From: Fidelibacterota bacterium
Lineage (GTDB): Bacteria; Fidelibacterota; UBA2242
Assembly: GCA_030603165.1 (NCBI GenBank)
Contig: JAUVYH010000003.1
Coordinates: forward strand, 1-45,639
Direction of reading: 5' to 3'
Length of the DNA: 45,639 nt
In this document: positions 25,185 to 30,372 of the stretch, one piece after another
How positions within the stretch are numbered: position 1 is the first letter of the stretch
How the letters are laid out: the number at the start of each line of letters is the position of its first letter
Program-made: the position numbers and the translations under genes
Notes under the pieces: model-generated
What the model was told of the DNA's origin: nothing
The model's database searches: none
The model's input: only the letters and a program-made list of their open reading frames with translations

Positions 25185-25318
25185 TATAGATTCCTATTTT
25201 CAGAACTCCTGACCTGATGTTGAAAAATCAATGATTTATTTCAATGAATTCGTAAAGTAAAATGTCATAATTTGTGATAAACTGGGAGTTCTGATTTCAA
25301 ATTTCAAATATCAAAGTG

Positions 25319-25480
25319 CAAATTGTATTAAAGGAAGTGAGAGAATCAAGGTTTTGGATTCGATTAATTAAAAGAGCAAGTTTGATTCCGAAAGATAAAA
25401 TTTCACCAATTCTTTGTGAAACTGATGAACTTATTAAAATAATTGCAAAATCAGTTATTACATCGAAGATAAAAAAATAA
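25319..25480 (+). pseudogene. C-terminal fragment of a four-helix-bundle (23S rRNA-IVP/TIGR02436-like) protein
   Basis: Manual translation QIVLKEVRESRFWIRLIKRASLIPKDKISPILCETDELIKIIAKSVITSKIKK*; N-terminal half missing; flanked by inverted tttcaaa/tttgaaa heptamer runs. Confidence 0.8.
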
Positions 25481-25498
25481 TTTGAAATTTAGTATTTG

Positions 25499-25520
25499 CG
25501 CCAAAGGCGTCCCCTTGGGG
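25499..25520 (+). mobile_element. 22-nt double-hairpin micro-insertion
   Basis: cgcc-aaa-ggcg tccc-ctt-gggg interrupting tttg|cattttgaaat. Confidence 0.7.
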
Positions 25521-25663
25521 CATTTTGAAATAACAGCCATACCGACTGATTTCAACATGAATAACTCCGATTGAAAATCTAAACCACAACGTGGTTCCAG
25601 CAGTTTTTGCAAAAATTAGAGACAGAATAATCTGCGATAAGTCAGGAGTTCTGATTTTACTTC

Positions 25664-25694
25664 AAGAGGGTGAATTTCTTCACCCTCTTTTTTT
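25664..25694 (+). terminator. Rho-independent terminator (probably the displaced dnaK terminator)
   Basis: aagagggtga...tcaccctctt stem followed by a T run. Confidence 0.8.
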
Positions 25695-25769: not shown

Positions 25770-25842
25770 GGCGACGTACCCAAGTGGCTAAGGGAGCGGT
25801 CTGCAAAATCGTTATTCACCGGTTCGAATCCGGTCGTCGCCT
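25770..25842 (+). tRNA. tRNA-Cys(GCA)
   Basis: Acceptor stem GGCGACG/CGTCGCC, U discriminator, anticodon loop CTGCAAA, T-arm GGTTCGAATCC; CCA not encoded. Confidence 0.96.
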
Positions 25843-25855
25843 CGTTTTTTTTCGT

Positions 25856-25930
25856 GCCGAAGTGGCGGAATTGCCTCAACGGAGATCCCTTTGGGAGTAG
25901 ACGCAAGGGACTTAAAATCCTTCGTAGGTT
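25856..25930 (+). pseudogene. Truncated 5' duplicate of tRNA-Leu(TAA) with a 23-nt insertion in the D-loop
   Basis: Matches 25960-26001 exactly apart from cctcaacggagatccctttggga at 25874-25896; lacks the T-arm and 3' acceptor strand. Confidence 0.85.
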
Positions 25931-25959
25931 TAAAACGCTTTTTAAAATTTTATCACAGT

Positions 25960-26045
25960 GCCGAAGTGGCGGAATTGGTAGACGCAAGGGACTTAAAATC
26001 CCTCGAAGGTAATCCTTCGTGTCGGTTCGAGTCCGACCTTCGGTA
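25960..26045 (+). tRNA. tRNA-Leu(TAA)
   Basis: Acceptor stem GCCGAAG/CTTCGGT, anticodon loop CTTAAAA, long variable arm, GGTTCGAGTCC; CCA not encoded. Confidence 0.96.
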
Positions 26046-26049
26046 CAAC

Positions 26050-26084
26050 AAAATCCCGTCGGTAAACGGCGGGATTTTCGTTTT
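26050..26084 (+). terminator. Rho-independent terminator of the tRNA cluster
   Basis: aaaatcccgtc...ggcgggatttt hairpin plus T-rich tail. Confidence 0.8.
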
Positions 26085-29619: not shown

Positions 29620-29924
29620 GATCGTTTCCTCCCTAAGATATTTTCTAATGATTTAAAAACCAACTATCGTATATACTTTTTGCACAATCCTCTTTATAAA
29701 AAACATCAAATATCATGAGCAAAACATCCCGATATCCGGAACTGTAAAAAAAACAATTCCCGGCGGATTACATTTTTTATCCTCTAATAAATTTATTAAC
29801 CTGAAATACTTCAATTCATTCACGGTTTACATTTGCAAACAAAATACTATTAATATTTTCGTTATGCAAGAACAATTTAGGTTTGATCGTAATGCCTACC
29901 TGGGTAAGCCAGAATTTCAAATTT

Positions 29925-29946
29925 CCCCAAAGGGGTGCCTTCGGCA
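29925..29946 (-). mobile_element. 22-nt double-hairpin micro-insertion
   Basis: Minus strand tgcc-gaa-ggca cccc-ttt-gggg; removing it restores the heptamer run tttgaaa-cttgaaa-tttgaaa. Confidence 0.75.
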
Positions 29947-30000
29947 CAAGTTTCAAATTGCAAATTGTAAATTTATAAGAAAATTCCCTTTGGGATAAGA

Positions 30001-30087
30001 GTAACTTTGCGAAAGCTATCTAAAAGAGATTTACAGTATTCATCTGTATCTTTCGCATTACCGAGAACGAACTTTCGCAAAGATTAC
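30001..30087. repeat. REP-like inverted doublet
   Basis: gtaactttgcgaaag ... ctttcgcaaagattac. Confidence 0.65.
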
Positions 30088-30189
30088 TTCTGGTTTATTG
30101 GTTGATTAGTTTACTGGTTTATCGGGGCTGGATGTTGAATTTTTAATTGAAGATTGCTAATAAAATCACAATATCAAAACACCAAATTT

Positions 30190-30211
30190 CTCCAATGGGA
30201 CGCCTTTGGCG
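30190..30211 (-). mobile_element. 22-nt double-hairpin micro-insertion
   Basis: Minus strand cgcc-aaa-ggcg tccc-att-ggag, 20/22 identical to 25499-25520; removing it restores caccaaa-tttcaaa-tttctaa on the + strand. Confidence 0.75.
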
Positions 30212-30372
30212 CAAATTTCTAATTACTCTCCCTTCCTTTCTCCCCTGCTCCAATTTATCGAAGGTTTACTCCAAATAACTGAAGGATTACGTTTGATCAA
30301 AATCTGGATTACGGTATTGTATATATGTCGAATTATCAATAATATTGGAGAGCAGAAATTAAAGGAGGCTAC

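Follow-up and report, generated by a model that had tools for sequence, protein, structure and literature searches.

A hairpin-plugged partial copy of tRNA-Leu in a Fidelibacterota genome, a possible gene-less form of a cassette lodged in tRNA genes

Organization of the tRNA-Cys/tRNA-Leu locus

The window analyzed here is a stretch of DNA of 45,639 nucleotides (nt) from a Fidelibacterota bacterium (GTDB lineage Bacteria; Fidelibacterota; UBA2242), taken at its full length (assembly GCA_030603165.1, contig JAUVYH010000003.1, positions 1 to 45,639 of the forward strand). Between its genes for the transfer RNAs (tRNAs) tRNA-Cys and tRNA-Leu(UAA) lies a partial second copy of tRNA-Leu whose D-loop is interrupted by a 23-nt insert, and this copy, to which a preliminary description had drawn attention, is the subject of the present study. 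We refer to the genome under study (3.3 Mb) as G000, to its contigs by C-numbers and to two congeners as G002 and G003. At the locus ARAGORN called only tRNA-Cys at 25770-25843 and tRNA-Leu(taa) at 25960-26046, and the partial copy, which the preliminary description had recommended for such a check, was not called as a tRNA. These two tRNAs were also the only matches above the gathering score in an Rfam search (E ≤ 1), while five other matches in the stretch were below theirs and at chance level. Terminator-like hairpins at 25664-25689 and 26050-26078 flank the tRNA pair. The features of the locus are as follows, with a slash here and below marking a point of insertion.

25770..25843, plus strand: intact tRNA-Cys(GCA), the first gene of the Cys-Leu pair (ARAGORN; Rfam tRNA, 61.9 bits)
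25844..25855, plus strand: native 12-nt Cys-Leu spacer, gttttttttcgt, which directly precedes the working tRNA-Leu in relatives free of the unit (from the sequence)
25856..25873, plus strand: displaced 5' fragment of tRNA-Leu, positions 1-18 (18 of 18 identical to 25960-25977)
25874..25896, no strand assigned: 23-nt double mini-hairpin, C CTC-aacg-GAG A TCCC-ttt-GGGA, at the D-loop site TTG/GTAG (repeat family; covariation of both stems in 9 genomes)
25897..25929, plus strand: copy of tRNA-Leu positions 19-51, covering the 3' side of the D-stem, the anticodon arm and the start of the variable arm, with 2 mismatches (repeat finder, blastn-short)
25930..25959, plus strand: 30-nt spacer with a GCTTTTT leader motif, as found upstream of stand-alone tRNA genes (from the sequence)
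25960..26046, plus strand: working tRNA-Leu(UAA), whose first 18 nt are proposed to have been supplied by the unit (ARAGORN; Rfam, 58.6 bits; position-16 marker in G002 versus G003)
26050..26078, plus strand: terminator-like hairpin closing the tRNA operon (repeat finder, terminator check)

The partial copy corresponds to positions 1-51 of tRNA-Leu(UAA) and occupies 25856-25929, upstream of the working gene. Both the repeat finder and direct reading showed that 25854-25873 and 25958-25977, which comprise two upstream bases and tRNA positions 1-18, are identical at 20 of 20 positions. According to the repeat finder, 25897-25929 matches 25978-26010 at 31 of 33 positions (94%, repeat family D1). 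The 23-nt insert, CCTCAACGGAGATCCCTTTGGGA, occupies 25874-25896, with the D-loop bases TTG directly before it and GTAG directly after it. The 42 identical nt counted in the preliminary description are correct, and the homology extends to position 51 with 2 mismatches. It stops there; the T-arm, noted early on as missing, is indeed absent, as is the 3' strand of the acceptor stem. A genome-wide blastn-short search with all 44 tRNAs of G000 as queries recovered the 33-nt piece with E = 2e-7 and the 18-nt piece with E = 0.003. The intact tRNA-Leu 104 nt downstream had been taken as the empty counterpart of the filled D-loop site, and the comparison is a valid one.

The displaced copy, the insert and a 30-nt leader-like spacer together form a unit of 104 nt (25856-25959), within which there is no open reading frame (ORF). 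The spacer contains the leader motif GCTTTTT, and a loose regular expression found a GC-T-rich leader motif within 40 nt upstream of 23 of the 44 tRNAs of G000. The same spacer is missing from relatives without the unit. The arrangement was found in an independently assembled congener, where it is 93% identical over 221 nt, as well as in other public assemblies, and the duplication is therefore not an assembly artefact of G000. Contigs from four public DNA runs were neutral on the duplication: none bridged the unit, and they contained pile-ups of the tRNAs of other organisms. The best public run contained at most 31% of the sampled words in the one run search.

Several identities were considered for the copy and rejected. 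A functional tRNA gene was called by neither ARAGORN nor Rfam at 25856-25959, and the homology ends at position 51. An intron-bearing tRNA, whether with a bacterial group I intron or an archaeal bulge-helix-bulge motif, would not lack its 3' half or have its 23-nt insert in the D-loop, and no Rfam intron family matched. A circularly permuted or split tRNA does not fit, as the 3' acceptor strand of the Cys gene and the 5' acceptor strand of the Leu gene are not complementary.

The insert belongs to a family of 22-nt double hairpins

The whole 23-mer had no match elsewhere in the 3.3-Mb genome even when 3 mismatches were allowed. Its 3' 15-mer, GAGATCCCTTTGGGA, is common to about 14 other copies in G000. 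The family has a plan of 22 nt with two 4-bp hairpins, T-NNC-RAA-GNN-A followed by T-NNC-TTY-GNN-A, a pattern that reads alike on both strands. When only the two loops and their closing pairs were fixed, 74 anchor matches were found in G000, and three control loop orders gave 9-11. In 44 of these 74 every one of the five free stem positions was paired, against a mean of 1.6 and a maximum of 5 in 1000 trials in which the partners were shuffled. There are at least 5 distinct first stems and at least 10 distinct second stems among the copies. Across 41 genomes of the group, the strict pattern occurred in 61, 33 (G000), 21, 10 and 5 copies in five genomes and in 0-3 copies in the rest; the reversed-pattern control gave 0 in all 41.

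Evidence for mobility came from filled and empty sites. In a family of miniature inverted-repeat transposable elements (MITEs) of 150-220 nt with the ends TTGATGGnnTCGTAAAAAGT ... ACTTTTTACGAnnCCATCAA, 11 copies have the 22-mer between ACTTTTTA and CGA of the right arm, and at least 5 copies have both arms uninterrupted. Further copies of this MITE carry the element at other internal positions (C215, C18). The comparison of filled and empty MITE arms revealed a precise gain of 22 nt with no target duplication. These sites agree with the preliminary description, which had regarded the 23 nt as a micro-element of the insertion type. The flanks were compared in 34 distinct contexts, which are partly non-independent as some come from related repeats: 20 of them have TTN at the end of the left flank and 20 have NAA at the start of the right flank, where about 3 of each would be expected. 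In tRNA genes, TTN-type sites are present at D-loop TTG/G, T-loop TTC/RA and the tRNA-Ser anticodon loop TTG/A. We conclude that the 22-nt double hairpin is a well-supported mobile element. It is not itself a MITE, as it shows no target duplication and its halves are each self-complementary instead of forming terminal inverted repeats. Its copies are single and dispersed, not in arrays as CRISPR repeats are, and it had no match to a group II intron domain.

The 150-220-nt MITE family has nested inverted repeats (TTGATGG..AAAAAGT / GTCATTCTGA..) and is present on C125, C164, C187, C215, C81, C136, C18 and others. Within the window, a strict 22-nt element, CCCCAAAGGGGTGCCTTCGGCA, occupies 29925-29946 with TTTCAAATT on both flanks, and the region around it (29900-30250) is a mosaic of short dispersed repeats with many copies in the three congeners. 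A different hairpin repeat, TACAAAGC-N4-GCTTTGTAA, surfaced as imperfect anchor matches; it has 8 copies, one of which ends in GCAA, on C24, C43, C47, C90, C105, C119 and C230.

The unit recurs in related genomes

We compared 19 Cys-Leu loci of relatives, in 16 of which both tRNAs were called. The gap between the two genes is 5-25 nt in 11 of the 16, which include other families of the order, indicating that a short gap is the ancestral state; in the other 5 it is 110-239 nt. The preliminary description had pointed to the Cys-Leu cluster of relatives as a source of evidence, and both states were recovered there, the recurring unit and the simple gap. The unit, with a 22-23-nt insert at the same TTG/GTAG place, was identified in 9 Marinimicrobia genomes (G000, G002, G009, G020, G005, G008, G011, L025 and L026). 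Apart from G000 itself, these derive from the expanded loci, from two loci that end at contig edges and from two new species that emerged when 185,579 species genomes were scanned. G001 is probably a tenth genome, on the basis of a 54-nt match. The units can be in tandem, with three of about 106 nt in L025, at least three in G020 and two in L026, the last unit in each of the latter two genomes being truncated by the contig end. A metagenome scan with a pattern independent of the insert found 2 loci, both of them with the insert, a number too small to exclude intermediates. No unit without an insert was seen in the 9 genomes and 2 metagenome loci.

The insert sequences vary by genus, as exemplified by CTCC-gtg-GGAG TTCC-tgc-GGAA and TCCC-ggaa-GGGA TCTC-ttc-GAGA, and both hairpins are kept. 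In each hairpin 97.2% of the cells in the alignment are paired, and 5 of the 8 pairs changed on both sides in a compensatory manner. These values were reached by 0 of 500 shuffles, and controls in which the stems were slid were 25-51% paired. As the set consists of 9 related sequences, the covariation is supportive and has no probability value attached. The anticodon stem of the copy is just 77.5% paired, and the 3' end point of the copy varies by genus. The preliminary description had considered that relatives may carry the same 23 nt as part of a conserved functional RNA. The insert does occupy the same D-loop place in relatives; its sequence, however, differs between genera with only the two hairpins kept, and there was no sign of a functional RNA.

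A mirror unit was found at the tRNA-Cys gene in 5 genomes (G002, G003, G011, G008 and L025). It consists of a 3' fragment of tRNA-Cys with a 22-28-nt double hairpin in the T-loop (ccggttc/.../aatccgg), and the order is intact tRNA-Cys, a spacer of about 50-65 nt, the plugged 3' copy and the native 12-nt spacer. Upstream of the copy is new sequence that pairs with the old strand of the anticodon stem (acgatt...aatcgt; aacggt...accgtt). Within the one genus, G002 has both units, G000 has the Leu unit only and G003 has the Cys unit only, with the Leu unit precisely absent. This pattern indicates that the units were gained or lost cleanly. At a fixed site, a unit is present in some close relatives and absent from others, a polymorphism that is looked for in homing cassettes.

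Three observations bear on the source of the unit, the first being the absence of its spacer from unit-free relatives. At position 16, the displaced fragment of G002 has C, as does the unit-free G003, and the working copy of G002 has T. The segment of the unit corresponding to positions 19-54 (…ccctcgtaggttt) matches the start of the variable arm in the tRNA-Leu of L025, G015 and G004, not that of G002's own gene (…ccctcgatcat…). These few sites weakly suggest that the unit may have been imported and not copied in place. The variable arm of tRNA-Leu(taa) is wholly different in G000, G002 and G003 (cgaaggtaatccttcg, cgatcatatttggtcg and cggtccattggaccg), and the rest of the gene is nearly identical. 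G011 has yet another tRNA-Leu-like copy, its third, which is degenerate, lies beyond the working gene and its terminator and has a single hairpin, TCCCGGTAGGGA, in the D-loop (L028 1675-1784, identical to L019, minus strand).

Related architectures carry small GIY-YIG nuclease genes

A similar arrangement with a gene inside was found at other tRNAs of G000. On C103, a 5' copy of tRNA-Ser(tga) (positions 1-56) with the 22-nt element in its anticodon is followed by a 31-nt leader-like spacer and the intact gene, and after that by a GIY-YIG ORF, a second plugged copy and a remnant of an older ORF start. This locus (C103 20877-21700) shows two rounds of invasion. On C93, an ORF for an 82-amino acid (aa) GIY-YIG protein begins 3 nt downstream of tRNA-Pro(cgg) (PF01541, E = 1.2e-14). 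Its stop codon lies in a pseudo-tRNA-Pro in which the anticodon arm is replaced by another hairpin and the T-loop has a 23-nt double hairpin. The 82-aa protein matches PF01541, with a weak overlapping match to PF10544 (T5orf172), and has no further domain. The genome-wide search with PF01541 also gave a GIY-YIG match in a 120-aa open frame on C103. The nearest solved structures to these small nucleases are UPF0213 proteins, and NCBIfam returned only a weak, sub-threshold match to a group I intron endonuclease model.

The association is general in the group. In a survey of 30 genomes, 28 had small GIY-YIG genes, with 1-10 per genome, and 30 loci were fetched to examine the tRNA context. At 17 of these 30, a tRNA on the same strand ends 0-35 nt upstream of the gene (Pro 10, Ser 3, Asn 2, Asp 1, Glu 1). 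A displaced 3' fragment of the tRNA was present in 13 of the 17, of which 9 were found by a tail search and 4 by eye. All 13 are altered in the T-loop or the anticodon region by one or two GC-rich hairpins or, for Glu, by a shortened T-loop. Beyond this group, a metagenome-assembled genome of Bacteroidetes (L027) has a 5' copy of tRNA-Leu with a 20-nt hairpin in the D-loop, followed by a 79-aa GIY-YIG ORF that ends 1 nt before the intact tRNA-Leu(caa). By its layout, the L027 locus is the ORF-bearing counterpart of the 104-nt unit, with the GIY-YIG ORF in the place of the spacer. Cassettes of this architecture in G000 and its family carry a small single-domain GIY-YIG nuclease gene in the size class of Ssn and UPF0213. 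A nuclease gene inside the mobile segment, a further mark of homing-endonuclease cassettes, is present at Pro, Ser and L027 and is lacking in the 104-nt unit.

Other loci show variations of this layout. On C177 (4760-5800, minus strand), a 5' fragment of tRNA-Asn with acceptor and D-arm is followed by a GC hairpin (CCGGC-agc-GCCGG), two small ORFs, a leader and the intact tRNA-Asn. Here the cargo differs and the split-and-rebuild layout is the same. Judged by eye only, the two ORFs resemble a PIN toxin and an antitoxin. On C110 (680-930, minus strand) and in L057, 21 nt from the 3' end of tRNA-Glu(ctc) are repeated behind the gene. The T-loop in this copy is shortened, and there is no ORF; in G006 that tRNA-Glu fragment is found after each of two tandem GIY-YIG genes.

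Other repeats beside the locus

A MITE-like insertion of about 455 nt (25196-25660) lies between the end of dnaK and tRNA-Cys and is absent from the orthologous site in G002. It has perfect 14-nt inverted ends, TCAGAACTCCTGAC, one full copy on C164 (97%) and many partial copies elsewhere. Contigs of three public runs begin exactly at 25654, at its right edge. Inside it, at 25500-25520, is an element-like double hairpin, GCC-aaa-GGC G TCCCC-tt-GGGG.

Comparison with known systems

The closest parallel to the small nucleases is the Ssn family. Ssn proteins are 94-aa single-domain GIY-YIG nucleases that bind dispersed hairpin repeats and cut adjacent single-stranded DNA (ssDNA) (Chenal et al., Nat Commun 2025, PMC11893778). 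The proteins here are similarly small, 82 aa in G000 and 79 aa in L027, and by our count the residues mutated in SsnA, Y6, Y17 and E64, correspond to Tyr6, Tyr17 and Glu63 of the 82-aa protein (PMC11893778). Short hairpin repeats are dispersed in tens to hundreds of copies in both systems and may adjoin the nuclease genes here as they do there, the repeats of the Ssn system being named NTS and SRM. Some junction hairpins of relatives, such as TCCCGCC-aac-GGCGGGA, resemble the NTS core given there, ATTCCC-N8-GGGAAT. Hairpins are 3' of the ORF in the 13 of 17 tRNA-adjacent loci noted above; the strict double hairpin is near only 1 of the 6 GIY-YIG genes of G000. There are differences as well: tRNA is mentioned 0 times in the main text of PMC11893778, the Ssn repeat has one 8-bp hairpin in contrast to the double 4-bp hairpin of the G000 element, and the 104-nt unit has no nuclease gene.

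A second parallel is SegB, a free-standing GIY-YIG homing nuclease of the phage T4/T6 tRNA cluster. It recognizes an 11-bp T-stem-loop motif of tRNA genes (PMC2330249) and drives tandem segmental amplification through short homologies (PMC13096335). The likeness consists of a GIY-YIG gene among tRNA genes, T-stem-loop recognition, spread by break repair and tandem amplification. SegB differs in being a larger phage protein, while the proteins of G000 and L027 match the NCBIfam group I intron endonuclease model only weakly, as stated above. A split-and-rebuilt tRNA gene with a hairpin plug is absent from the available portions of PMC2330249 and PMC13096335.

The element itself invites comparison with the REP/REPIN-RAYT system, which likewise has many short hairpin-forming repeats (PMC3116915); dispersed repetition is evident in G000 from the 44 perfect copies and from the 33 strict copies versus 0 in the control. 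The G000 element differs in being just 22 nt long and in having two hairpins that are not inverted copies of each other. G000 has 14 matches to Y1 transposases (PF01797), and none of the 14 genes has a strict element within 1.5 kb, so that the arrangement of a RAYT gene flanked by its repeats was not found. Looser mini-hairpins flank some genes like those of the insertion sequence IS200, one element-like double hairpin included. Two such Y1 genes, at C25 3566-3910 and C125 596-940, have repeated segments with pairs of mini-hairpins on both sides, one of them being TCCCGGAGGGATCCCGTTGGGGGA. We regard the Y1 transposases as a candidate mobilizer of the element. In keeping with the ssDNA transposition of IS200/IS605, the element generates no target duplication and inserts beside a short word, which in G000 is TTN.

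Mobile repeats of 21-27 nt in cyanobacteria, known as SDR, were reportedly described by Elhai and colleagues (Genome Res, 2008) as having predicted hairpins and as being insertions on the evidence of filled and empty sites. They resemble the G000 element in their size of about 22 nt, their hairpins and their filled and empty sites, differ in phylum and sequence, and are not known from that work to be linked with tRNA fragments or nuclease cassettes. Integrative elements are reported, in work by Williams from 2002, to cut a tRNA gene in its loop-coding region, rebuild the gene and leave a displaced fragment. Those elements differ in that it is the 3' part which they duplicate; they span many kilobases with an integrase among them and are not known to have a hairpin plug.

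In plastids, tandem partial trnF pseudogene arrays have been described upstream of the working gene (PMC3786074). Both cases have head-to-tail partial tRNA copies beside a functional gene, and trnF arrays are an organelle phenomenon. Neither an inserted hairpin element nor a link to a nuclease is known to us from the trnF arrays.

A full-text literature search gave no description, among the matches listed, of small cassettes that split and rebuild tRNA genes in bacteria and have hairpin-plugged fragments; SegB and mitochondrial and phage homing genes did appear. We read the unit as one variant of a class of tRNA-lodged cassettes not yet described in print, joined to a 22-nt mobile double hairpin.

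Proposed origin of the unit

We propose that the unit is a non-autonomous or decayed, gene-less form of a self-restoring cassette that splits tRNA genes and whose displaced fragment is plugged by hairpins, an explanation to which we assign about an even chance. The added DNA, counted from TTG/GTAG, would comprise the 23-nt double hairpin, positions 19-51(54), the 30-nt leader-like spacer and new positions 1-18. The tRNA-Leu gene would have been split and rebuilt at one stroke, and the old positions 1-18 would have been left as a dead, hairpin-plugged fragment. The anatomy of the unit, its recurrence, the covariation, the precise and independent insertion of the element and the association of small GIY-YIG genes with this architecture were observed directly, and how the cassettes spread is our inference. 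A nuclease would break the loop-coding DNA of a naive tRNA gene, and repair would copy the cassette from a donor via the tRNA homology on both sides, so that the gene is rebuilt and its old end is left behind. The plug would interrupt the repeated homology, with just 18 nt remaining for the one viable deletion, and would also split the conserved loop motif; as a consequence, the displaced fragment may be neither easily recombined away nor re-cut. Tandem arrays could result from repeated events or from unequal exchange.

A number of observations weigh against this proposal. There is no nuclease gene in the 104-nt unit. At the Marinimicrobia loci with an adjacent tRNA, the GIY-YIG gene is always 3' of the tRNA (17 of 17), with none seen on the 5' side. 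Among the 30 GIY-YIG loci, 7 end at contig edges and 6 are without an adjacent tRNA call. Only 1 of the 6 PF01541 matches in G000 has a strict element within 1.5 kb. The predicted stability of the hairpins is weak, at -2.8 kcal/mol as DNA with z = -0.6, which is not better than that of shuffled sequences; the structure is therefore argued from the covariation. Since the element inserts alone at sites outside tRNA genes, a later hit on a remnant explains the plug equally well. The D-loop insert of G011 is one base off the generic G000 element, which suggests replacement or independent insertion and not descent with the unit. The rebuilt tRNA gene restores the presumed nuclease site, which leaves the immunity of the donor unexplained. 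Finally, the position-16 marker is a single site and is weak as evidence.

The strongest alternative is that a partial 5' duplication of tRNA-Leu, local or imported, came first, for example by illegitimate or nuclease-stimulated recombination, and was later hit by the mobile, TTN-preferring 22-nt element. In this scenario hits in the working gene would be lethal and only those in the spare copy would survive. The preliminary description had offered such a later hit as one of two explanations, and we consider it the less likely reading but a serious rival. The independent, precise insertion of the element without target duplication favors it, as do the TTN on the left in 20 of 34 contexts, for which the three tRNA loop sites listed above qualify, and the burst-like distribution of the element across relatives. 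Orthologous tRNA-Pro cassettes have different junction hairpins in different genera, and the insert of G011, being nearly generic, also points to a later hit. On the other hand, the insert-free unit that this scenario would have as its precursor was not seen in the 9 genomes and 2 metagenome loci. All inserts are at the D-loop site even though the anticodon loop of the fragment, CTTA/AAA, is an equally good TTN/NAA site, and plain, att-like 3' fragments of tRNA-Lys and tRNA-Gly in G000 have intact T-loops and no element. Both arrival of the plug with the unit and a later hit were considered, and we make no choice between them.

It is improbable, in our view, that the plugged half-tRNA is instead a structured RNA or DNA signal that is useful to the host and has been selected, such as an element for processing of the Cys-Leu transcript or a decoy within it. 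Different genera have diverged in the spacers but retain positions 1-18 and 19-29 and both hairpins, and the unit lies inside an operon between two terminators. The inserts are at G18/G19 and after C56, the two points from which the tRNA elbow is built. Nevertheless, the unit is patchy within genera and easily lost, G003 being without the Leu unit and G000 without the Cys unit. The variable 3' end of the copy and its poorly paired anticodon stem do not favor a selected structure, and no Rfam family matches the copy. The parts identical to the tRNA may be kept by gene conversion with the neighboring gene, and the same architecture elsewhere carries nuclease genes that look selfish.

The second explanation of the preliminary description was that the element disrupted the sole tRNA-Leu(UAA) and that the duplication then rescued the cell. 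The order of a filled copy upstream and an intact copy downstream is compatible with it. However, loss of the only tRNA that reads UUA should not be survived for long enough, the spacer is foreign to the locus, and the copied segment in G002 does not appear to derive from the resident gene, the start of its variable arm being that of another lineage's tRNA-Leu. This layout is also found at Cys, at Ser, at Pro and in tandem arrays, with a nuclease gene in the same architecture at other tRNAs, and we regard a rescue as very improbable and do not retain it. As a whole, the first reading of the insert-bearing copy is partly supported. Least probable of all is an attL/attR scar of a deleted integrase-borne island, for which tRNA genes as classic integration sites and the plain, 100% identical 40-43-nt 3' copies of tRNA-Lys and tRNA-Gly on other G000 contigs would speak, but which is disfavored because here the 5' part is duplicated, the copies are 30 nt apart with no ORF between them and no integrase ORF nearby, and tandem arrays exist.

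Going further than our proposal of a gene-less cassette, and tentatively, one may imagine a class of tRNA-gene parasites, so far undescribed, that have the double mini-hairpins as their working ends. Ssn-type ssDNA nucleases, or Y1 transposases, would recognize the hairpins, nick at the adjacent TTN in single-stranded DNA of the tRNA gene and in this way drive the copying of a cassette, by which the gene is overwritten and rebuilt. The gene-less 104-nt units would then be mini forms that are moved in trans and stack by serial invasion. We consider this extension possible but rather doubtful.

Implications

tRNA genes are among the most conserved sequences of genomes and are classic landing sites of large mobile elements. 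Here, a unit of about 100 nt without a gene of its own appears to split and rebuild a tRNA gene and to leave a hairpin-plugged fragment behind. If the unit does stand at the small end of a nuclease-cassette family, it would provide a concrete selfish life cycle for Ssn-type ssDNA nucleases and hairpin repeats, and the pairs of tiny nucleases and hairpin sites would be testable in vitro. It would also warn annotators not to take such fragments for introns or for novel RNAs, and it would account for many of the "tRNA pseudogenes" and odd tRNA-adjacent repeats in uncultured bacteria.

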